A stretch of 64,000 nt of DNA, from positions 4,501 through 68,500 of the forward strand of contig CAWERH010000039.1 of assembly GCA_963811315.1 (NCBI GenBank), in the 5' to 3' direction. Of this stretch, positions 6,523 through 29,171 are shown piece by piece (within the stretch, counting starts at the first letter, position 1; each line of letters starts with the position of its first letter). The DNA comes from an uncultured delta proteobacterium. Lineage in GTDB: Bacteria; Desulfobacterota; Binatia; UBA9968. The notes beneath the pieces are model-generated. The model was not told the DNA's origin. It worked only from the letters and a program-made list of their open reading frames with translations, and did no database searches. The translations under genes were made by a program, and so were the position numbers.

Positions 6523-7074
6523 ATGATCATTCTCAGTCCGGAAGGAAAAGCGCAGACCTCAGGGGCAAAAATCGCGAGCTTGCCGCAGTTCACCGAACTG
6601 CGCGGCAAAGTGGTCGGTTGGCTCGACAACAGCAAGCCCAACGCCGACAAGCTGGCGGAACGGTTTGGCGAGCTTTTAAAAGAAAAATACGGCGTGGCCA
6701 ACATGATTACCAGGCGCAAACTGACCGCGCAGCAAGGCGCGCCGAAACAATATCTCGACGAGCTCGCATCGCAGGCCGACTTTGTCATCTGCGGCCTGGG
6801 TGATTGAGGCTCGTGCACGTCGTGGAGTGTCCACGACTCCCTCGAAATTCAAAAGCGCGGCCGTTTTGCGATCACGCTGATCACCCACGCTTTCGTGGCG
6901 CTGGCAAAATCCGAGAAGGAAGCTTTTGGCGCGCCCGATCACCCGGTGTTGGTCGTGCAGCATCCTATCGGCACGGTCAAAATCGAAGAAGTTAACAAGA
7001 AGGCCGAGGCGGCCTTCGATCAAGCTGGTAAAAATCCTGCTCGACGCCGGAAACGGCGCGGTCAAAGTCGCTAG
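6523..7074 (+). CDS. UGSC-motif selenoprotein (UGSC-family (seleno)protein), copy 1; in-frame UGA at 6805-6807 read as selenocysteine
   Basis: The ORF tool stops at TGA 6805-6807 (..FVICGLGD*). The same frame continues GSCTSWSVHDSLEIQKRGRF... to TAG 7072-7074. The downstream peptide is conserved with paralog 18780-19343. A SECIS-like hairpin sits 11 nt after the UGA. SD AGAGGAG lies 6 nt before the ATG. Confidence 0.7.
6819..6837 (+). other. candidate bacterial SECIS stem-loop GUCGUGG-AGUGU-CCACGAC
   Basis: A perfect 7-bp stem with a 5-nt G-containing loop starts 11 nt 3' of the UGA. The 27 nt tcgtgcacgtcgtggagtgtccacgac are identical to paralog 19071-19097, while flanking synonymous sites have diverged. 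Confidence 0.6.
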
Positions 7075-7134
7075 CCTGGAGGTTGGAGTTTCGGTCTCGA
7101 GTCCGCAGGATCGTCAAGCCGGCCCTTCGAAAGC

Positions 7135-7220
7135 TGTCATGATGAGCGCGAGCGAAGCATCCAGGTTCGCAGTGCCGTTCAGTTAAGAGAAGCCTGGATT
7201 CCTCGTGCTCATGGCAATGA
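7135..7220. repeat. MITE/REP-like imperfect hairpin element (termini GTCAT...ATGAC)
   Basis: tgtcatgatgagcgcgagcgaagcatccagg ... cctggattcctcgtgctcatggcaatgac form an ~85-nt inverted repeat. It is intergenic, between the selenoprotein gene and its partner gene. Confidence 0.55.
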
Positions 7221-7303
7221 CGGAAGGGCGACTTACAGTTGGCACAGTCAGGTTATTCTGGACGAAAGGTGACGGCGGGATTTGAGGGAACGTTTACGCA
7301 AAA

Positions 7304-8357
7304 ATGGCAGAACAACCACTTCAAGCGGAACGATTCGAAATTCCCGACGACCTTTGGGCGGCGCAGGCTTTTTTTGAAGAAAAGGGATGGTCCGATGGTT
7401 TGCCGATCATTCCGCCGACGGAAGAGCGGGTGGCGCAGATGCTCGGCGGCGACGACCCGAAAACCGGACGAGTTGATCGGCGCGGTGCCGCCGCGCTGGG
7501 CGCAGGCGAGCGTCGAGAAGATCGCGATCAATGGCGTCATGGCCGGATGCAAACCGGAGTACATGGCAACCCTGATTGCCGCGGTCGAAGCGATCACCGA
7601 TCCCAAGCTCAATCTTTATGCGTTGCAGGCGACCACGGGCGGACCGGCGGTGATGATCATCATCAACGGCCCGATCCGCCATAAGCTCAACGTCAACGGC
7701 GGGCCCAACGCGTTGGGCGAAGGGTGGCGCGCCAACGCCACCATCGGCCGGTTCGTGCAATTGATCAAACGCAATATCGGCGGCTCCTATCCGGGCACCA
7801 CCTGCAAGGCGACGCTTGGCTGGCCGGGAAAATATTCGATCTGCGTCGGCGAAAATGAAGAGGCGAGTCCGTGGGAACCGCTGCACGTGGAGCGCGGTTT
7901 CAAAGCCGAGCAAAGCACGGTGACGGCGATCAGCGCCGATGCTTCAATACGAGCGTCGGATTTGGACAGCTCGAAAGCGGAAGGCGTGCTGATCAATTTC
8001 GCGCAGAAAATGGACGGCCCGTCCGGGCCGGAAGCGATCATGGTCATTTGCCCGGAGCATGCCAAGATCATTGCCGATGACGGCTTCAGTAAGAAAGACG
8101 TGCAGAAATTTATCTGGGAGCGCGCCGCGTACCGGATGAAGGATTTGCCGGACGAGACCTTCGCGCAACGGGTCAAACGGCGCAGCGATCTGAAGCTCAC
8201 CCGCGACAGCATCATTCCGGTGACCGATAGGCCGGAGGACATACTCGTCATCGTCGCCGGCGGTGACGGCTCGCAGTCGCAGTACATCCACGTCTGGGGT
8301 CAGAGCACGCCGGAAGGCGGGTCGACGCGCAGCGTCACGAAACTCATACGGGATTAA
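7304..8357 (+). CDS. conserved hypothetical protein genetically linked to the UGSC selenoprotein (partner, copy 1); frameshift at the A4 run 7460-7463
   Basis: MAEQPLQAERFEIPDDLW..GLPIIPPTEERV (ORF 7304) continues in ORF 7239-8357 as ..ELIGAVPPRWAQASVEKIAINGVMAGCKPEY...GWPGKYSICVGENEE... It is paralogous to 19885-20967 along its whole length. Confidence 0.7.
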
Positions 8358-16007: not shown

Positions 16008-17021
16008 TCAACGGTAGCCGGCATCGTCGGCAGGCAGACCACGTTCTTGGACCTCCACGAGGTAGCGCCAGCAGTCCGGCTGGGTGCCGTCGATGTCGGT
16101 GAAGCCGTAGATGGGGGCGAGCTGTCCGCTGGAGACGACCTTACCCGTCCAGCGCGCAACCTCCGGGTCCGCTGCGAGGGCGGCGACCGCGCGGCCGACG
16201 TAGGTCGGCGACTCGGAGATGCAAAAGTGCGGCATGCGGGCGGTCGCGTCCCGCCAGTTTGCTTCGGTCACGCCGTACGCGTCGAGCATCTTCTCCGAAC
16301 GCAGCCAGCCCGGAGTTACGGCGACGGCCGCGCCGTGGTGCGGGGCCAGCTCGTGACTCTGCGCGAGAGCCATGCGCTGCACGGCGTTTTTGACCAGGTC
16401 GTAGAAGAATCCCACCTGGTGGCGGTACGCCGCGTTGTACTCTGCGGTCCCGTCGGTCATCTCGATGACCAGCCCGCCGGGGCGGCGGATGAGCAGCGGC
16501 AGGGCGTGGTGGCTGGTGATCGCATGCGTGTCGATGCCCAGGCGCAGCATTCGCAGCCCGCCGGCGAGGTCGTGCTCCCACAGCTTGGTGTTGAACTGGA
16601 GGTAGGTGTCGCCGCCCCAGATGTCGTTCACGAGCACGTCGAGGCGGCCGTGGTCTCGGTCGATGCGCTGGACGAGATCGCGCACCTGCTCGCTTTCGAG
16701 GTGATCCACCCGCAAGGCGATTCCCACGCCCCCGGCGGCGGCGATCAGCTCACCGGTCTCTTCGATCGTCTCCGGCCGGTTGATTTCCGACCGGCCTGCC
16801 CGGCTGCTGCGCCCGGTGGCGTAAACTGTCGCACCCGCGCGGGCAAGCTCTACGGCAATCGCACGTCCGGCGCCGCGCGTGGCGCCTGCGACTAACGCCA
16901 CTTTCCCGGTTAATGCTCCAGCTTTTGCTTCATTCTTCGCTGTGGCTTCCATTGGCATTTTCTTCTTGCGCGCACCCTTCCGCGCGCCACGAAACTTAGG
17001 TGCGTTTTCAACAAGCCTCAT
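16008..17021 (-). CDS. short-chain dehydrogenase/reductase (SDR) family oxidoreductase
   Basis: ..GKVALVAGATRGAGRAIAVELARAGATV.. (TGxxxGxG Rossmann motif). The ATG at 17019-17021 overlaps the TGA of the upstream amidohydrolase in an ATGA arrangement. The +strand ORF 15930-16895 is an antisense artefact of ~70% GC. Confidence 0.8.
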   Translation of the reverse strand: MRLVENAPKFRGARKGARKKKMPMEATAKNEAKAGALTGKVALVAGATRGAGRAIAVELARAGATVYATGRSSRAGRSEINRPETIEETGELIAAAGGVGIALRVDHLESEQVRDLVQRIDRDHGRLDVLVNDIWGGDTYLQFNTKLWEHDLAGGLRMLRLGIDTHAITSHHALPLLIRRPGGLVIEMTDGTAEYNAAYRHQVGFFYDLVKNAVQRMALAQSHELAPHHGAAVAVTPGWLRSEKMLDAYGVTEANWRDATARMPHFCISESPTYVGRAVAALAADPEVARWTGKVVSSGQLAPIYGFTDIDGTQPDCWRYLVEVQERGLPADDAGYR

Positions 17022-18114
17022 AGCCCATAAAACTTCCTCGGATTGTCACACAAGATCTTTTCCACGAGACTTGGCGCCACGTCTTCGCGCGCCTTCATCT
17101 GGGTCACCAGATGAGCTTGTTCAGCGGGGTCGTTGTGACCGTAGTCGGAGCCGGTGAGCAGGTGGCCTTCGCCGGTGTACTTGATTAGGTAGGGAATATC
17201 TTCGTCGGCCTCGCAGGCGACGAAGAAACGGCAATCTTCGAAAAGATCGGCAGGGGATTGCCACGATGCTTTCCAGCGTTTGGTGTTGTCGCGCCGTAGC
17301 TTGTGGATCAAGTAGGGTATCCAACTGGCGGAAGCTTCGATGAAGCCGAAGCGCAGTTTTGGAAACATGTCGGGAATCTGATTGAGCACGAGATCGCGAA
17401 ACGCGTGCAGGGGCGGAAAGCCGGAGTGAGACCATTGCCGATTGCGCTCCAGATCGAACATCGCGGTGACGGCCGGGGTGCCGGAGCCGGTGTGAATGCA
17501 GATCGGTAGATCGAGTTCCATCGACGTTTGATATACCGGGAAAAAGTACGGGTTGTCCAAGGTCAAGTTGCCTTCCATGCCGCGGAAGAATACCCCGACG
17601 GCGCCGTTTTGCTTGGCCCACTTCAGCTCCTGCACCGATTCCTCGATGCAACGCAGCGGCGGGATCGCCACCCAGTGGATGCGGTCGTGACTCTGCGCGC
17701 AGGCTTGCGCCATGAAACGGTTATAGGCGCGGCTCAACGCCACGTCGAGCTCGGCGTCGTCGGTGAGGTAGATCAGAAACAGAGTCGGATAAACCACCTG
17801 AGCCGCGATGCCGCCGCGATCCATATCGGCGAGCCGGGCCGGGACGTCGGTCAACTCTCGGCACGCGACCTGAATGTCTTTTCTGTTCGATTGGATTTTC
17901 GACGCCGAGGGGTGACGAGACGGAAGCCGCCCTTGCCGACCGGCTTGGGAAAAATGTTGCCGTCGATCAGCCAGGTCGCATTCCAGCCGCCGTATAACGT
18001 GTCGTCCGGCAGAGACAGCAAAACCGGCCGGCGCGGGTACATCTCCTTGTCGATCATCTGCCACATGGCTTCCGATTCGGCTACGTGAGTATCGGCATCG
18101 ATGATGGGTTGCAT
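17018..18114 (-). CDS. amidohydrolase-2 family protein; frameshift at the G4 run near 17908-17911
   Basis: N-terminus MQPIIDADTHVAESEAMWQ..GKGGFRLVTP (ORF 17851-18114) joins ..SASKIQSNRKDIQVACRELTD...PICIHTG...TGSDYGHND..FYGL (ORF 17018-18064). Paralog of 1533-2646. Confidence 0.75.
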
Positions 18115-18779: not shown

Positions 18780-19343
18780 ATGGCGACGATTAAATTTCTC
18801 GATCCCCGAGTGGTGATCAATCCCAAAGACCAGCCGCTGGTGCCGGGTCTGGATACGCTCGAAGGAAAAGTTATCGGCATCATCGATAACGGGCAGGCCA
18901 ATTCGACGACGATGTTTCAAGAGCTGGCGCAACTGATGCAAGAAAAACTTCATACCAAGGAAGTTCTGTTCAAAACCAAACCGACGCACATGCAGGGCGC
19001 GCCGAAACCGATCATGGAAGAAATCCTCAACCGGTGCGACGCGGTGATCACCGGTTTAGGCGCTTGAGGGTCGTGCACGTCGTGGAGTGTCCACGACGCC
19101 ATCGAATTGCAAAAGAAGGGAAAGCCGACGGTAACCCTGTGCCAGTCGATCTTTATGGCGCTGGCGCGCACCGAGGCGAAGTTTTTCGGCATCGCTAAAT
19201 TACCTCTGGTCGAAATCCCGCATCATCCGAGCGGCGGCGCACGGCCTGGTGAGCATCGAGCGGATGCCGAGGGCGCGGTTAGTTTGGTTAATGAGCAGTT
19301 GACGCTGGGTGGGGCGGCGTTGAAGAAGACGCGACAGCGGTGA
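18780..19343 (+). CDS. UGSC-motif selenoprotein, copy 2; in-frame UGA at 19065-19067 read as selenocysteine
   Basis: ..VITGLGA U GSCTSWSVHDAIELQKKGKPTVTL... continues to TGA 19341-19343. The peptide after the UGA aligns with copy 1 (SLEIQKRGRFAITL.. versus AIELQKKGKPTVTL..). SD AGGAGG lies 9 nt before the ATG at 18780. Confidence 0.7.
19079..19097 (+). other. candidate bacterial SECIS stem-loop GUCGUGG-AGUGU-CCACGAC (identical to 6819-6837)
   Basis: It starts 11 nt after the UGA and its nucleotide sequence is conserved between the paralogs. Confidence 0.6.
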
Positions 19344-19465: not shown

Positions 19466-19864
19466 ATGAACGCGAGCCCGGAAGCTGCGGAAAAATCCAA
19501 CCGATGCCGAGCGTTTGCTCTGGCAAAACTTCGTTTCTGGCAAGTTGACGGTTGCAAATTTCGCCGTCAACAACCCTATAGGAAATTACATTGTTGACTT
19601 TGTTTGTTTAGAAAAAAGATTGATTATCGAGGTCGACGGCGGACAGCATGCTGAACATATGAATTACGGATACCGACCGTGATGCTTGGTTACGAAATCC
19701 GAGGGTTATGTAATTTTAAGATTCTGGAACAACGATGTGTCTAAGAAGATAGATGGCGTCAAGGAAGTGATATTTCAATCCTTGCAAAGCACCCCCTACC
19801 TTAGTCCTTCCCCGCAATCGGGGGAGGAATGGTTGAGAAGCTAGGAAGATCGCATCGAGCACGA
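19466..19864 (+). pseudogene. DUF559 (Vsr-like endonuclease domain) gene with at least 4-5 frame disruptions; pseudogene or error-dense
   Basis: Reconstructable as M-TRARKLRKNPTDAERLLWQ|KLRFWQVDGCKFRRQQP|IGNYIVDFVCLEKRLIIEVDGGQHAEH..DRDAWLRN..GYVILRFWNNDV..IFQSLQ across three frames. Each break is at a short homopolymer. The gene sits in a ~540-bp lower-GC insert between the selenoprotein gene and its partner. Confidence 0.55.
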
Positions 19865-19884: not shown

Positions 19885-20967
19885 TTGGAGTTACCGACAG
19901 TGCAAAACCTCACCTCTAACCTCATCGAAGTCGAAGACAGCTGGGAAGCGGTCAATGACTGGTTCTGCAACGAAAAACTGAGTGACGGTTTGCCGATCGT
20001 GCCGCCTACGGCGGAGCGGGTCGAACGAATGCTCGAGCGCGACGAATCGCGGGATCCGCAGGAAGTCATCGGGCCAATCCCGCCGAAGTGGGCGCCTTGT
20101 TCGATCGAGAAGATTGCCATCAATGCGGTCATGGCCGGCTGTTTGCCGGAATATTTGCCGGTGATCATCGCGGCGGTGGAAGCGATCTGCGAACCGCGCT
20201 TCAATCTCTATGGCGTGCAAGCGACTACCGGATACGTCGGCCCGGCGCTCATGCTCAACGGTCCGATTCGCAAAGCACTCAACGTCAATTGCGATGCCGG
20301 CGTGTTTGGTCCCGGCTTTCGCTCCAACGCGACCATCGGCCGCGCCATTCGATTGATTCTCATCACCGTCGGCGGCGGCTACCCGGGCGACACCGATCGC
20401 TCGACTTTTGGCTGGCCGGGCAAGTACACCATGTGCTTTGGCGAAAATGAGGAGAAGAGTCCGTGGGAGCCGTATCACGTGGAGTTCGGTTTTAAACCTG
20501 ACGAAAACAGTGTGACGGTGTTCGGCATCAATGGTTTTTTGCCGATCCACACGGCCGGCAGTCGCGGCGAGCAGGCGCTTGCTTCGCTCGCAGAAGTTAT
20601 TCGCATGCACCACGGCGTGAGTCATCTCGACGTCGGCAGTTTTGGCGGCGGCACACCGCTGGTTGCCCTGGGCGTCGAAGACGCCGAGATCATGGCGCGC
20701 GACGGCATCACCAAGAAACAAGTCAAGGACTTTCTCTGGGAGCACGCGTCGCTCAAATTTTCCGAAGTTCCGGCGCGCCGCAAAGGCCACAAAGACGACG
20801 CCGAGTTGCTGCGCGAATCGCCCAACGTTACCCCCGATGGCGTCGTCCATCTTTCCACGAAGGCCGAAGACATCATGGTCATCGTGGTTGGCGGCAAGCA
20901 TCGCCATTCGGTATTTCTGCCGATGTGGACCGGGCGCAATACGCTGTGCGTGATCAAGCCAATTTAA
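19885..20967 (+). CDS. conserved hypothetical protein genetically linked to the UGSC selenoprotein (partner, copy 2)
   Basis: 360 aa and intact: ..SDGLPIVPPTAERV..EKIAINAVMAGCLPEY..NLYGVQATTG..GWPGKYTMCFGENEEKSPWEPYHVE.. TTG start at 19885. The 19891-21120 minus-strand ORF is antisense. Confidence 0.75.
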   Translation: MELPTVQNLTSNLIEVEDSWEAVNDWFCNEKLSDGLPIVPPTAERVERMLERDESRDPQEVIGPIPPKWAPCSIEKIAINAVMAGCLPEYLPVIIAAVEAICEPRFNLYGVQATTGYVGPALMLNGPIRKALNVNCDAGVFGPGFRSNATIGRAIRLILITVGGGYPGDTDRSTFGWPGKYTMCFGENEEKSPWEPYHVEFGFKPDENSVTVFGINGFLPIHTAGSRGEQALASLAEVIRMHHGVSHLDVGSFGGGTPLVALGVEDAEIMARDGITKKQVKDFLWEHASLKFSEVPARRKGHKDDAELLRESPNVTPDGVVHLSTKAEDIMVIVVGGKHRHSVFLPMWTGRNTLCVIKPI

Positions 20968-21010
20968 TAGCAATTGGAGTAGTGGAGTGATGCGGAAGAA
21001 GATCGAGGAT
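20968..21010. repeat. tandem repeat array (TGGAGTAG/TGGAGTGA then GAGGATG x3) overlapping the start region of the next gene
   Basis: ttggagtagtggagtgatgcggaagaagatcgaggatggaggatggaggatcg. Confidence 0.35.
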
Positions 21011-21999
21011 GGAGGATGGAGGATCGCCCGCGCGGCGGCGATTTTCATGCTCGCGTTTCTGTTCGCCACGGTTTGTAATGCGCAGGAGAAATTTCGCTTT
21101 CCGATCGCTGAATCGTCCAAGACCTTGAGCTATGGTCCGCTCTGGGTCGCCTCGAAGATGGGTTTCTTTGACAAGGAAGGCTTGGACGTGCCGATCGTCA
21201 CCATGCGCGGTTCGCCGCTGGCGATTCAGGCGCTGACCGCCGATTCGATTTATATCGCCAACGCGACCGTCGATACCCTGATCAACGCCTACGAGAAAGG
21301 CGCGGATATCACGATGATCGGCGGGCCTGATCAACGGGCTTGGACTTGAGCATGATCGGCGGCAAGCCCTATAAGACCTATGCCGACCTGCGCGGCACGA
21401 CGATCGGCACGCAGACGCTGACTTCCGGCACTGGATTCGCTCTTCGCTTGGTGCTCAAGGTGCACGGCTTGGAATATCCGCGCGACTACGCGCTGCTCAA
21501 CATCGGCGGCGCTTCGGACCGCTATCAAGCGCTGACGTCCGGTCAAATTTCTTCCGCCCCGGTCGGCGTGCCTCTCGATCTGGTTGCCAAACAGCAAGGC
21601 TTCAACATCATCGGTTATTTTGCCGATGACCAACCGAACTTTCAGTTTAATGTCTACATCGTCAAACGCTCCTGGGCGGAAAAAAACCGGCCGCTGACGG
21701 TGCGCTTCATGAAAGCGATGGCGTCGACCATGCGCTGGATGGCGGACAACCGCGACGCTGCCTGCACCTATCTTTCAAAGGAAATGGCGATCAGCGTCGA
21801 GCATTGCCGCTATGCCTCCGACTACAACTGGAAAAGCCGCATCTGGGACCGCAATGCCGATATCAACATCGAGGGCGTGCGCACGCTGATCAAAATCACC
21901 GCCGAGCAAGGCATTCTCAAAGAACCTTTACCCCAGCCGGCGAAATACCTCGATCAAAGTTATCTTAAGCAGGCGCTGGCGGAACTGGCGAAGAAATAA
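20987..21999 (+). CDS. NMT1-like periplasmic substrate-binding protein (subtype B, paralog of 29216-30186); frameshift near 21335
   Basis: ORF 20987-21349 (..FLFATVCNAQEKF..LWVASKMGFFD..TMIGGPDQR) joins ORF 21340-21999 (LDLSMIGGKPYKTYADLRG...LEYPRDY...). Confidence 0.75.
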
Positions 22000-25300: not shown

Positions 25301-25369
25301 TTGAAGGATTGCCGTCAAGCCGAAATCCGCAATCCAAAAGTGATCCCCGCAGACTAAATTGGAGCGAAG

Positions 25370-26535
25370 GTGGATTTCAATCTTCCCGAAGAGCTGCAAG
25401 TTCTAAAAGACACCGTCCGCAAATTCGTCGATCGCGAGTTGATTCCGCTCGAGCGCGAGTGCCGCCCCGAGGGCGAGGACATGCCCGAGCAGTACATCAA
25501 GCCGCTGCAAGAAAAAGCCAAGGCCATCGGTCTATGGCTGCTCGATGTGCCGGAGGAATACGGCGGCGCCGGCCTGGATCTCATGAGCCGTTGCGTGATC
25601 ATGGAAGAGGTCGCGCGCACGGTGGCGATCCCGTTTCGCTATGCGCCGATCTTCGGGCCGGAAGTGCGGCCGGTATTGTTCCACTGCAACGAGGAACAGA
25701 AGAAGCGATTTTTGCTGCCGGTGATCGAAGGCAAGATGCGGATTTGCTTTGCGCAAACCGAGCCCGATGCCGGCAGCGATCCAGCCGGGGATGAAGACGC
25801 GGGCGGTAAGAGACGGCGATCATTACATTATCAATGGCACCAAGCGCTTCATCACCGGCGCAAAGCACGCCGACTACGCCCAAGTCATTGCGGTCACGGA
25901 CCCGCAGAAGGGCGCGCGCGGCGGCGTGAGTTGTTTCATGGTCAGCATGAAGGCGCCGGGCGTTACGCTAGAGCGGCTGTGGCCGACGATGATGGGCGAC
26001 ACGCCGGGACAGATTCATTTCGAAAACGCGCGAGTGGCTGCCGCCGACATGATCGGCGGGGAAGGGCAAGGGTTTTGCGATCGCGCAAAAATGGATCGAG
26101 GAAGGGCGCATCCGCGGCCATGGCGCGCGTCCGGTCGGCATCGCGTCGCGCGCGCTCGACATGATGATCGAGTATTCCAAAGTCCGCACGACCTTCGGCC
26201 AGCCGCTGGCGAACCGCCAGGCGATTCAATTCATGATCGCCGACTCGGCGATGGAACTGCATGCCTGCCGCTTGATGGTTTACGAGTGCGCCTGGCGTCA
26301 CGACCGCGGCGAAGATATTCGCCAGCTTTCTTACATGACGAAAATTCAGTGCGCCGAGATGGCGAGCCGGGTGGTCGACCGCTCGATTCAAGTGCACGGC
26401 GGCTTGGGACTAATGCGCGAGCTGCCGCTCGAGTGGTGGTATCGCCAGGTGCGCAGCATCCGCATCACCGAAGGCACGCCGGAAGTTTTGCGCTGGCGTT
26501 TGGCAGAGCACATCATTAAGAATCACAAAGGATGA
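25370..26535 (+). CDS. acyl-CoA dehydrogenase; two frameshifts (G4 run 25791-25794 and T4 run 26073-26076)
   Basis: Three ORFs concatenate: MDFNLPEELQVLKDTVRKF..EPDAGSDPAG | MKTRAVRDGDHYIINGTKRFITG..GEGQGF | AIAQKWIEEGRI...QVHGGLGLMRELPLEWWYRQVRSIRITEGTPEV.. Confidence 0.75.
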
Positions 26536-26645: not shown

Positions 26646-27856
26646 ATGACTGATACGCTCGATGCAACTGCGCTGCTGCCCGGCTACCGAGTCCTCGATC
26701 TCACCTCGTCGATCGGCGCGCTGTGCGGCAAATTGCTCGGCGACCTGGGAATGGATGTCATCAAGATCGAGCCGCCCGACGGTGGCGCGGCGCGCAGGGA
26801 GCCGCCCTTCGCCAATGGGCACGCGCATCGGGAGGGCAGTCTCCGCTTCGCCTATCTCAACGCCGGCAAGCGCAGCATCACGCTCGATCTCACCAAGCCG
26901 AGCGCGCGAAATTTGTTGCTCCAGTTAGTCGAGCGCGCCGACGTAATCGTCGAGGACTTCGCTCCCGGGTATCTATCCGGATTGGGTTTGAGCTATGAAG
27001 CTCTGCTCGAAAAACAGAGCAAGCTTATTCTCGTGTCGATCAGCGGCTTCGGTCAGGACGGGCCCTACGCGAATTACCAAACCACGGATCTGATCGGCAA
27101 TGCCATGGGCGGGCTGCTCTATATCAGCGGCGACCCGAAAATGACGCCGTGCAATCCGCCGGAAACCCAGTCGCTCTATTACGCGAGTCTGTTCGCGTCC
27201 TACGGCGTCATGCTGGCGCTGTGGCAGCGCGAGACCCGCGGCATCGGCGCGTGGATCGATACTTCGGTGCAAGCGAGCATGGCGCTGCACGAGCACGTGG
27301 CGTTCAACTATTCCGCCGAGGGACGGGTGATGAAGCGCGCCGGCAGCCAGCACCAGCACAATGCGCCGGCGAATTTGTTCCAATGCAAGAACGGTTGGAT
27401 CTCGCTCTTCGTCACGCAGACGCATTGGCCGCTCCTGCTTAAAGTTTGGCCCGATCACGATCCCGAGCTCGACGATCCCAAGTGGATCAACAGCAACCTG
27501 CGCCGGCAGCATGCCGATTACATCAACGCGCAGGTGACCGCGTTTACGTCGGGTTTTCTCAAGGAAGATCTGGCGGAGCTGATGCAGAAGCACGGTATTC
27601 CCGGTTTGCCGGTCAACTCGCCGTCGGATTTTATGAAGGACCCGCACATTCAAGCGCGCGGGTTTTTTGCCAATGTGACGCATCCCGTGCTCGGTTCGTT
27701 TGCCCAGCCGGGAACTCCTTTTATGGTCGACGGCCAGCGCTCGCGCGCCGTCGCCCGCGCCGCTGCTGGGACAGCACAATCATGAAGTGCTTTGTGGCGA
27801 GCTGGGATTGAGCGCGGGCGAGATGGCGGTGCTGGCGGCGGAAAAAACTATTTGAG
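26646..27856 (+). CDS. CoA-transferase family III (CaiB/BaiF/BbsE-like); frameshift near 27735
   Basis: ..YRVLDLTSSIGALCGKLLGDLGMDVIKIEPPDGG... and a C-terminus recovered in the other frame: PPLLGQHNHEVLCGELGLSAGEMAVLAAEKTI*. Confidence 0.75.
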
Positions 27857-27859
27857 GCC

Positions 27860-27957
27860 AATTAAAAATTAAAAAGGCAAAATTAAAAAAGCGGGAACCC
27901 GGAACACTTTGGACCGATTCGTAGATTATTTGAATTTTTAACTTTTAATTTTTAATT
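27860..27957. promoter_or_regulatory. AT-rich inverted repeat between the tandem CoA-transferase genes (arms AATTAAAAATTAAAA..., ~40-nt spacer)
   Basis: aattaaaaattaaaaaggcaaaattaaaaaa ... ttgaatttttaacttttaatttttaatt. The arms share 15/15 nt at their outer ends. Local GC is about 25% in a ~63% GC context. Confidence 0.4.
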
Positions 27958-27959
27958 CT

Positions 27960-29171
27960 ATGTCTCCTAGTCAGATTTTAAAAGGCGTGCGCATTCTCGC
28001 TTTCACCACGGGCTACGCCGGTCCTTACGCCGGCAGGCTGCTTGCGGCCTACGGCGCGGAGGTGATCAAGATCGAGTCGAGGAAGGGCGGGCTCGATACC
28101 TTTCGCCATTACGGCCAGCACAAGGATATCGACGCCGCGCCGCGTTTCATCGAGTGCAACCTCGGCGTGCGCTCGTTTGCGGTCAATCTCAAACATCCGA
28201 CCGGCGCCAGACTGGTTCGCGAACTGGCCGGTAAATCGGATGCGATTCTGCAAAATTTTCGTCCTAGAGTGTTGGATAAGCTGGGTTTGGGTGACGACGA
28301 ACTGAGAAAACTTAATCCTAAACTTGTGGTTGTGAAATTGCCGGGCTTCGGTTCCGAAGGGCCGAAGAGCGGTTACGGCACTTGGGGATTTAATCTTACG
28401 GCTTTCTCCGGCATGACCTATCTGTGGAATCATCCCGAGCAGGATCGCCCCATCGGCAGTCAGGGCGTCTATCCCGATCACTTGGGTTTCGTTATGGGGC
28501 CGACGCTGCTGGTCGCGGCGCTGCTGAACAGCCGGCGTAGCGGCAAGGGCGTGACCATCGATTTGGCGCAGATCGAAGGCACGGCGTACACGCTCGGCGC
28601 GACTTACCTGGAAACCTCGGTGAACGGCGACGATCCTCAGCCGCAGGGAAATCACTACGCGCTCGCCGCGCCGCACGGCTGTTACCGTTGCCAGGGCGAT
28701 GACCGCTGGTGCGTTATTTCGGTGCGTGACGACGATGAGTGGCGCGCTTTCTGCCGCGTCATCGGCAGGGCGGAATTGATCAGCGACGCGCGTTTTACCG
28801 ATCTGCAAACCCGACTGGGGCATCGGACTGAGCTCGACGACATTGTCAGCGCGTGGACGCAAGCGCGGCCTGCGGAAGAGGTCATGACCCAGATGCAATC
28901 CGCCGGGGTGCCTGCCGGTGTGGTGCAGAGCGGCGCGGACCTGCTCAAGGATCCTCAACTGCGCCACCGCAACTATTTTTCGCCATTCGCCGATTCGTTG
29001 ATCGGTCCGTTTGAAATCCCGCGCAGTGGTTTCCTGTTCCGCGGCTTGAACGAAGAACCTCTGCGCTTACCCAATCGACTCGGCGCAGACAATGAGCCAA
29101 TTCTAACCGATTTGCTCGGTTATGATCAGGCAACGATCGAGCAATGGCGCCAGGAAGAAGTGCTCACATAA
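27960..29171 (+). CDS. CoA-transferase family III (CaiB/BaiF/BbsF-like)
   Basis: 403 aa, intact: ..VRILAFTTGYAGPYAGRLLAAYGAEVIKIESRKGG... Confidence 0.85.
   Translation: MSPSQILKGVRILAFTTGYAGPYAGRLLAAYGAEVIKIESRKGGLDTFRHYGQHKDIDAAPRFIECNLGVRSFAVNLKHPTGARLVRELAGKSDAILQNFRPRVLDKLGLGDDELRKLNPKLVVVKLPGFGSEGPKSGYGTWGFNLTAFSGMTYLWNHPEQDRPIGSQGVYPDHLGFVMGPTLLVAALLNSRRSGKGVTIDLAQIEGTAYTLGATYLETSVNGDDPQPQGNHYALAAPHGCYRCQGDDRWCVISVRDDDEWRAFCRVIGRAELISDARFTDLQTRLGHRTELDDIVSAWTQARPAEEVMTQMQSAGVPAGVVQSGADLLKDPQLRHRNYFSPFADSLIGPFEIPRSGFLFRGLNEEPLRLPNRLGADNEPILTDLLGYDQATIEQWRQEEVLT

Follow-up and report, generated by a model that had tools for sequence, protein, structure and literature searches.

Two cassettes in a 64,000-nucleotide stretch of DNA from an uncultured delta proteobacterium (Binatia; contig CAWERH010000039.1, positions 4,501 to 68,500; hereafter the window) each carry a gene of UGSC, a selenoprotein family of unknown function (PMC1976440, PMC2398784, PMC13188914), followed by a gene for a large protein of about 350 to 360 amino acids (aa). 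Very probably the large protein and UGSC make up one enzyme as its two subunits, which are often found as domains of a single polypeptide. With a probability of roughly 0.55, and judging from gene neighbourhoods and sequence profiles, the pair is a widespread thioredoxin-dependent reductase-type selenoenzyme of organic-acid catabolic clusters. All functional statements on the two proteins are computational, and we infer the chemistry of a reductase, the part played by each residue and the class of substrate.

UGSC has been catalogued since 2007-2008 among the most abundant prokaryotic selenoprotein families of ocean and freshwater metagenomes (PMC1976440, PMC2398784). It was one of the top selenoprotein families in the Global Ocean Sampling (GOS) data, with 255 selenocysteine (Sec) sequences against 21 Cys homologs (PMC2398784), and its function is still unlisted in reviews of 2022 and 2026 (PMC9312934, PMC13188914). 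A ‘UGSC/Unknown_1 fusion’, in which UGSC is joined to a conserved uncharacterised domain with a conserved Cys, was noticed in the GOS data (Zhang and Gladyshev 2008, PMC2398784, Fig. S1A). ‘Unknown_1’ is probably the large family, the UGSC-large fusions described below being the obvious candidate for that fusion. Unlike the present analysis, that paper reported no neighbourhood linkage, distribution or mechanism (PMC2398784). Full-text searches on UGSC, in the papers open to searching, found no partner, operon or activity, and the UGSC/large pairing appears to be undescribed beyond the fusion remark of 2008.

Linkage of UGSC and the large gene

The two cassettes comprise the following features.

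6523 to 7074, forward strand: UGSC gene of cassette 1, Sec TGA at 6805-6807, motif GLGD-U-GSC-TSWSVHD (translation)
6819 to 6837, forward strand: SECIS-like (selenocysteine insertion sequence) hairpin of cassette 1 (RNA fold)
7304 to 8357, forward strand: large gene (UGSC partner) of cassette 1, about 350 aa once repaired, with a +1 frame break at about 7455-7463
7456 to 7463, forward strand: frame-disruption site in the large gene of cassette 1, with CCC G AAAA homopolymer runs, at the junction of two high-scoring segment pairs
18780 to 19343, forward strand: UGSC gene of cassette 2, Sec TGA at 19065-19067, motif GLGA-U-GSC-TSWSVHD (translation)
19079 to 19097, forward strand: SECIS-like hairpin of cassette 2 (fold and covariation statistics)
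19885 to 20967, forward strand: large gene (UGSC partner) of cassette 2, an intact open reading frame (ORF) of 360 aa

The small genes of the window are members of the UGSC family by their U-G-S-C motif, their in-frame TGA, their SECIS hairpin and their scores above the Pfam cutoff. Against PF24696 (‘UGSC’, cutoff 25) copy 1 scores 147.3 bits (E 6.5e-43) and copy 2 scores 140 bits (E 1.1e-40). Against NF041046, with its NCBIfam equivalog cutoff of 125, copy 1 lies just over the cutoff (127.8 bits) and copy 2 under it (110.2 bits). When the TGA is read through, the Sec context of copy 1 is VICGLGD-U-GSCTSWSVHD. Both cassettes fold into a hairpin of 8-9 bp with a GUG loop, 13-14 nt after the UGA; in cassette 1 the 8-bp stem GUCGUGGA/UCCACGAC encloses the loop GUG and begins 14 nt past the U of UGA. 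Across 111 non-redundant UGSC genes (<90% identity), 91% of the cells of this stem are paired against 19-49% in shifted registers, a pairing reached by 0 of 500 column shuffles, and compensatory swaps occur, as at one stem pair with G-C in 86 genes and C-G in 20. The reading of both window genes as genuine selenoprotein genes is sound because of this pairing, the shuffle test and the compensatory swaps. An Rfam scan of the window gave no family match, bacterial SECIS included, and no tRNA was found in the window, tRNA-Sec included.

The preliminary description of this DNA had placed each large gene downstream of UGSC on the same strand, at distances of 230 and 540 bp. That order stands for both cassettes, and the spacers measure 229 nt and 541 nt, the longer of which contains a DUF559 endonuclease-like remnant (19515-19844, forward strand) in two ORFs whose halves match Pfam with E 2.5e-14 and 1.3e-5. 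Among relatives the spacer is 534 nt in the ortholog L002, 282 nt in L001 and 156 nt in L003. The further claim that the large gene is always immediately downstream of UGSC is too narrow and does not generalise, because either order occurs. With one genome scanned for each GTDB species, at least 595 hits were obtained, of which the 80 best-scoring loci were analysed with a six-frame hidden Markov model (HMM) search reading through TGA, so that adjacency is given by HMM alignments rather than curated gene models. In these 80 species-level loci UGSC adjoins 79 of 93 large-family genes on the same strand, with UGSC first in 53 cases and the large gene first in 26. The other 14 large-family genes are without UGSC, 3 of them at contig edges. 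The codon at the Sec position is TGA in 64 of 66 genes and TGC in two (Natrialba, Sphingomonas), and Cys-type UGSC is also present in haloarchaea.

The same linkage is seen from the side of UGSC. A set of 120 metagenome loci was picked by a Sec-motif DNA pattern alone (U-G-S-C-T-S-W-S-x-H-D, one UGSC sub-motif), and a UGSC gene is present in all 120. The large gene adjoins it in 88 of them, downstream in 80 and upstream in 8; the remaining 32 loci are truncated on one side or more, and the large gene is present in every locus that has 1.3 kb or more of flank on both sides. The linkage of UGSC and the large gene is close to obligate. In the gene-neighbourhood check proposed at the outset it holds in both directions and is conserved in many bacterial phyla as well as in haloarchaea: the 80 genome loci are drawn from Binatia, Chloroflexota/Dehalococcoidia, Rokubacteria/Methylomirabilota, Alpha-, Beta- and Gammaproteobacteria, Actinomycetota, Bacillota, Acidobacteriota, Poribacteria and Entotheonella, and, among the archaea, from the haloarchaeon Natrialba.

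In public annotations the UGSC gene is systematically broken in two or translated wrongly. On plasmid pFER4 of Paracoccus ferrooxidans (L203, 6414-8071 and 11386-13161), for example, UGSC is annotated as two ‘hypothetical proteins’ with the break at the Sec codon; the pair has selB 3 kb downstream and DsrE, TusA and a cysteine desulfurase upstream. In Joint Genome Institute entries (P0121, P0123, P0124) the Sec codon is rendered as Trp.

The large family and its fusions with UGSC

The two large genes are full-length paralogs, as had been noticed, with 156 of 353 residues identical (44%, E 5e-97), and the motif blocks quoted for them are all present in both. They had been assigned to no recognised family, and the HMM check agrees, since it gave no Pfam, NCBIfam or PDB relative and no structural relative either. 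No family of Pfam-A or NCBIfam was found at E <0.04 for either copy or for 48 diverse relatives scanned singly, and phmmer and profile searches of the PDB sequences with the large protein gave no match. The AlphaFold2 (AF2) model of the copy 2 protein, built from 48 sequences, has a mean predicted local distance difference test score (pLDDT) of 89.9 and a predicted template modelling score (pTM) of 0.91, and a Foldseek search with it against the PDB returned nothing at E <=0.001, the template modelling score being at most 0.26. The large family thus has a confidently predicted fold and no solved relative. A word-indexed search finds more than 7,500 homologs, each named ‘hypothetical protein’, and when 1.84 billion cluster representatives were searched exhaustively with an HMM, 7,704 clusters (50% identity) were found at E <=1e-3, 5,239 at <=1e-10 and 2,517 at <=1e-30. 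PGAP and GenBank again use the label ‘hypothetical protein’ in 24 records of plasmids or chromids from cultured organisms.

Conservation was assessed in 157 members of the large family from genomes and metagenomes, with residues (C86, R153, C184, E187) numbered after the product of 19885-20967. Glu187 (GENEE) is present in all 157; Arg153 (NATIGR), Asp34-Gly35 (DGLP) and Trp194 are present in 156 each, Thr115 in 153 and Asn148 in 152. The Cys of the VMAGC motif, Cys86, had been called invariant, which it is not: it is kept in 147 of the 157 members and is otherwise Ala (nine) or Val (one). Cys184, in the G-x-P-G-K-Y-x-x-C block, is found in 141 members, and both cysteines are absent in only 2 of 157.

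Tandem large paralogs with complementary cysteines, A86/C184 beside C86/V184, occur in three metagenome loci (L128, L142, L190). Large-large fusions of about 710 aa (P0170, P0175, P0176, P0226, P0249, P0270) have C86 in both halves and C184 in neither. The tandem paralogs and the fusions suggest, from their sequences, a dimeric or heterodimeric assembly. A heterodimer with complementary cysteines was considered as a general rule and set aside, since the large-large fusions do not follow it. A shorter variant of the large protein (about 315 aa), in which part of the C-terminal region is absent, is found in Poribacteria (L059, L065, L066, L073, L076) with no UGSC within 6 kb; the one in L065 adjoins an MlrC-like peptidase and an aldo-keto reductase.

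The large protein and UGSC are commonly found fused. Among the best 150 cluster representatives there are 84 stand-alone large proteins, 46 UGSC-large fusions, 4 large-UGSC fusions, 6 large-large fusions and 10 with other extensions. About 15 of the 46 UGSC-large fusions have a complete UGSC domain, and nine of these have a C-G-S-C-type motif with Cys for Sec, for example P0187 with the motif GDCGSCTSW. The other 31 or so start directly after the Sec codon, as expected of a gene caller that stops at TGA, and the large-UGSC fusions terminate exactly at GSGD, right before Sec (e.g. P0177). Fusions that read through TGA are seen in the loci themselves: a large-UGSC fusion with U-G-G-C in L019, and UGSC-large fusions in L008 and in a second gene of L019. 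The AF2 model of P0187, from 14 fusion sequences, has a pLDDT of 87.7 and a pTM of 0.89, with only the linker 182-198 disordered. The UGSC and large domains of this fusion are predicted to pack with a defined interface, for which the high pTM despite the disordered linker is an indirect indication.

Two further kinds of protein stand beside these fusions. The L046 gene 9411-11132 encodes a fusion whose UGSC-like domain is without Sec and the resolving Cys (MSGGSTT), and whose partner domain has C86 and Leu184; such fusions may, from their motifs, form a sub-family that is redox-dead or mechanistically different. Vibrio europaeus plasmid pVEu (L204, 4052-8059) and Sporomusa termitida plasmid pSPTER (L205, 2947-8101) encode partner-domain proteins of 561-574 aa, a size that fits a UGSC-partner fusion. 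In both of these unrelated bacteria the gene adjoins aconitase X and DUF126. Elsewhere, the aconitase X/DUF126 pair is a cis-3-hydroxy-L-proline or mevalonate-5-phosphate dehydratase, and by analogy this neighbourhood is a possible hint at the substrate class.

Candidate chemistry and redox partners

The preliminary description had suggested a two-component redox or catalytic system of the large protein with UGSC. This suggestion is supported by the reciprocal linkage, the common fusions, the packing in the AF2 model of the fusion and the recurrent redox partners. In the proposed mechanism, the large protein would be the substrate-binding, catalytic subunit, in which Arg153, Glu187, Asp34, Asn148 and Thr114/115 would make up the pocket and supply its acid-base groups, and UGSC would be a small Rossmann/flavodoxin-like redox subunit. 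The UGSC selenolate would first attack or reduce a small, probably carboxylate-bearing substrate bound by the large subunit. A selenenyl-sulfide would then form within U-x-x-C, or with C86 or C184 of the large subunit, and would finally be re-reduced by thioredoxin and its reductase at the expense of NADPH. Where the large subunit is fused to an AhpC/TSA-type CxxC domain, as it is in some lineages, that domain may carry out this last step. The paralogs probably act on different organic-acid or amino-acid-derived substrates, because the module sits in variable catabolic clusters and is often multi-copy.

The UGSC domain models as a Rossmann/flavodoxin-like alpha/beta fold with U-x-x-C between a beta-strand and the N-terminus of a helix. 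A thioredoxin-like fold, as guessed for UGSC in 2008 (Zhang and Gladyshev, PMC2398784), is set aside in favour of this model. When 29 UGSC sequences were compared with the Grd and Prd models, 18 matched TIGR01917 (GrdB; best E 6e-6), 11 matched TIGR01918, 11 GrdF, 7 GrdH and 2 PrdB, all of them below threshold. Copy 2 of the window matches TIGR01917 weakly (E 0.007), centred on the Sec motif; the best scores of the window UGSC are 15.3 bits against a cutoff of 602 (TIGR01917) and 12.2 bits against 65.45 (TIGR01918), and PF07355 gave no match with UGSC. At the level of sequence profiles, these matches show UGSC to be a distant homolog of the Sec-bearing region of GrdB/PrdB.

The likeness to glycine and proline reductases extends to their organisation. 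As in GrdB, GrdF, GrdH and PrdB, Sec stands in a U-x-x-C context, and as in GrdB and PrdB the Sec subunit would work with a separate substrate-binding subunit (GrdE, PrdA). The grd operons are linked to thioredoxin reductase and thioredoxin; trxB, with or without trxA, likewise accompanies the pair in some operons (Arthrobacter, Roseovarius, Variovorax, Chloroflexi L081) and is absent from most loci and from the window. However, GrdB has about 430 aa and UGSC about 180 aa, and none of 48 large-family members matches any Grd or Prd model of Pfam or NCBIfam at E up to 1. The UGSC system has no equivalent of GrdA, GrdC or GrdD, and it is found in aerobes, haloarchaea and soil and marine heterotrophs, whereas Grd and Prd belong to Stickland fermenters. 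By analogy, the pair would work like the protein B modules of the glycine and proline reductases, yet it lies outside these systems because its scores are far under the cutoffs and its partner is unrelated to GrdE and PrdA.

A stricter form of this analogy would make the large protein a counterpart of GrdE/PrdA that cleaves itself between Gly85 and Cys86 (VMAG/C) to give an amine-binding pyruvoyl group, with UGSC as its GrdB/PrdB. The remote homology of UGSC to GrdB/PrdB and the thioredoxin-system linkage, which resembles that of the grd operons, fit this proposal. Pyruvoyl enzymes are cleaved at Gly/Ser-type sites, and the conserved Ala-Gly before Cys86 resembles them. It is nevertheless very improbable, since the large protein has no sequence or profile similarity to GrdE/PrdA and since position 86 is Ala in nine members and Val in one, at least six of which are paired with Sec-UGSC. 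Furthermore, in the AF2 model a short turn that joins two helices within a compact domain holds C86, which is not in a strand-loop of the self-processing type, and the single-chain model is confident throughout with no hint of two fragments.

The thioredoxin-dependent reductase reading is favoured by gene orders in which thioredoxin-system genes stand beside the pair, as in the following loci.

Arthrobacter sp. ERGS1:01: trxB-trxA-large-UGSC
Roseovarius sp. THAF8: large-UGSC-trxB
Variovorax sp. SRS16: trxB-TctC-SDR-large-UGSC (SDR, short-chain dehydrogenase/reductase)
Haloterrigena turkmenica: UGSC-large, then a 303-aa NAD(P)/FAD oxidoreductase (a TrxB-sized flavoprotein)
Chloroflexi L081: TrxB-like gene, UGSC, large

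TrxB-like genes are also found within the loci L006 and L046. The linkage of the pair to the thioredoxin system is recurrent, though not universal. An AhpC/TSA or Redoxin domain stands N-terminal to the large protein (Pfam E 1e-6 to 1e-10) in L044, L071, L074, L072 and P0305, and its motif is mostly CxxC (CPTC, CETC, CATC), degraded to CPTT in L044. Between the fused AhpC/TSA and partner domains there is a conserved P-G-C-G-S, an echo of the U-G-S in UGSC. Three of the loci with this fusion keep a separate Sec-UGSC gene downstream, with the motif A-D-U-G-S-C-T-T-C-S-V/L-H-D.

These associations also bear on whether the enzyme is a reductase at all. In a redox-neutral enzyme (isomerase, racemase or lyase), the Sec or Cys of UGSC and a Cys or Glu of the large subunit would act as catalytic nucleophile or acid-base pair, and the thioredoxin system would merely keep them reduced. 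The best-conserved residues of the large subunit are indeed Glu187, Arg153, Asp34, Asn148 and Thr114/115 and not the cysteines, and no dedicated reductant is encoded at most loci. This is unlikely, however, since dedicated trxB/trxA genes share an operon with the pair repeatedly, in phyla that are not related, and a CxxC AhpC/TSA domain is covalently fused, arrangements typical of enzymes in which every turnover consumes reducing equivalents, and since the sole detectable relatives of UGSC are reductase selenoproteins.

Several observations weigh against a thioredoxin-dependent two-subunit selenoenzyme. About 10-15% of the large genes have no UGSC within 6 kb. Of the ten variants with Ala or Val at position 86, at least six pair with Sec-UGSC, and some fused UGSC-like domains have lost both U and C (L046, SGGS); therefore, one and the same thiol/selenol chemistry cannot serve all members. 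The large subunit has no similarity to the pyruvoyl proproteins GrdE and PrdA, and the similarity of UGSC to GrdB/PrdB, far under the family cutoffs, covers only about 65 residues around Sec. TrxB-like adjacency is a minority feature, seen in 2 of 80 genome loci and in 3 of 10 annotated plasmid loci besides the Haloterrigena flavoprotein; the window has no TrxB-like gene, and dedicated reductant genes are missing from most loci. When all neighbours were clustered, no conserved third gene emerged, the largest neighbour cluster being present in 11 of 80 loci; antisense artefacts of the longest-ORF calling were disregarded.

In the proposed cycle, the Cys/Sec (seleno)disulfide is recycled by Trx/TrxB as in MsrA/B, ArsC, PAPS reductase and peroxiredoxins, and as in those enzymes the Sec and Cys forms interchange between lineages (for UGSC, 64 TGA against 2 TGC). 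Unlike them, the UGSC system is a two-subunit one with a large and novel substrate-binding subunit, and there is no kinship in sequence or fold. Only tentatively can the pair be proposed as a class of selenoenzyme not recognised before, whose catalytic fold would be new and whose chemistry would be unlike that of any known Sec enzyme. Such an enzyme might, for example, draw on thioredoxin to reduce organic-acid or amino-acid derivatives or to cleave them reductively, with neither a pyruvoyl group nor a metal as cofactor. If true, the class would be spread over most phyla of soil, freshwater and marine heterotrophs and the haloarchaea, and one of the most abundant orphan selenoprotein families of environmental metagenomes would at last have a function.

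The orphan UGSC becomes a testable enzyme system, in that its second subunit is named and its tie to thioredoxin reductase is a repeated one. The natural Cys fusions are expressible without the Sec machinery, and cultured hosts are available for genetics (Paracoccus versutus, Roseovarius, Variovorax, Arthrobacter, Vibrio europaeus and haloarchaea). The operons also point to a type of assay, namely NADPH, TrxB and Trx with operon-guided substrates.

Catabolic surroundings and frame breaks

In the window, the neighbours of the cassettes encode Amidohydro_2 proteins, NMT1-type solute-binding proteins (SBPs), an alpha/beta hydrolase, an SDR, an enoyl-CoA hydratase, an acyl-CoA dehydrogenase and two family III CoA-transferases. 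The preliminary description had noted that both cassettes are embedded among amidohydrolase and SBP genes and had taken this as a hint of a shared substrate class. The Amidohydro_2 and NMT1-type SBP neighbours are present, but they say little about a shared substrate because they are not conserved partners. A family III CoA-transferase is found near the pair in Natrinema, Roseovarius, Halalkalicoccus and Haladaptatus. Other neighbours elsewhere include a CoA-ester lyase, TctC, TRAP and TAXI binding proteins, LysR regulators, DUF6282 and, twice, phosphosulfolactate synthase. One Chloroflexi metagenome-assembled genome (MAG) has eight copies or more on those of its contigs that were sampled, L020 has three in tandem and the window has two. 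With its multiple copies and catabolic context, the pair bears the signature of a substrate-diversified catabolic enzyme module and not of a housekeeping factor.

This context is also where a role in sulfur or selenium trafficking, sensing or protection can be weighed, in which the pair would be a persulfide/perselenide carrier or would detoxify peroxides or electrophiles. On Paracoccus ferrooxidans pFER4 the pair has DsrE, TusA, cysteine desulfurase and selB close by, peroxide chemistry could be read from the AhpC/TSA fusion, and a generic redox role was assumed in the earlier literature (PMC2398784). Such a role is improbable all the same. The many paralogs per genome, as in the Chloroflexi MAG and the window, and the consistent placement of the pairs in transporter and catabolic operons with LysR regulators are a better fit to substrate-diverse catabolic enzymes than to a housekeeping carrier, and the fused AhpC/TSA domains have a CxxC-type motif as in Trx-like reductants.

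The window itself shows an expansion of paralogs by tblastn, with 13 NMT1-type SBP and 6 Amidohydro_2 genes in 64 kb. Tandem family III CoA-transferases lie at 26646-29171, and TctC is also present.

The large gene of cassette 1 had been described as one gene at 7304-8357. This interval of 1054 nt is not a single ORF; rather, it holds two ORFs in different frames. With copy 2 as the tblastn query, residues 7-54 align to 7313-7456 in frame 2 and residues 55-348 to 7455-8297 in frame 3. The N-terminal 50 codons (…DGLPIIPPTEERVAQMLGGDDPK) are thus in one frame and the remainder (…PDELIGAVPPRW…EKIAINGVMAGC…) in the +1 frame. The UGSC gene of the same cassette departs from the ortholog-supported frame near 7020, where an ORF in an alternative frame extends to 7186. 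Its C-terminus reads AEAAFDQ|AGKNP in the called frame and KLVKILLDAG in the alternative frame, and the latter fits the C-termini of the intact orthologs L002 and L004 (…ADAAFAKLVDLLLEP and …ADAAFDKLLETLVEP).

Cassette 1 (6523-8357) might accordingly be viewed as a decaying pseudogene that leaves cassette 2 as the sole functional copy, given that its reading frames are disrupted twice, independently, over some 450 nt (UGSC near 7020, the large gene near 7460). This is somewhat unlikely, since both halves of the large gene are fully alignable, all of its motifs are kept and its stops arise only from the shift. Moreover, the orthologous cassette is intact in a related Binatia MAG (L002), and at least three unrelated genes of the window have the same single-break pattern, which is typical of homopolymer indel errors. 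These other split genes are two Amidohydro_2 genes (1536-2643 and 17021-18114, both on the reverse strand) and an NMT1-type SBP gene (20987-21999, forward strand). In view of these other breaks, assembly indels are at least as likely as pseudogenisation; the split genes suggest either homopolymer indel errors of the assembly or a decaying region of the genome. Programmed frameshifting at 7456-7463 was considered and rejected, since the shift is not conserved (L002 is intact) and unrelated genes of the window are broken similarly. The acyl-CoA dehydrogenase gene at 25309-26519 (forward strand) is probably frame-broken too.

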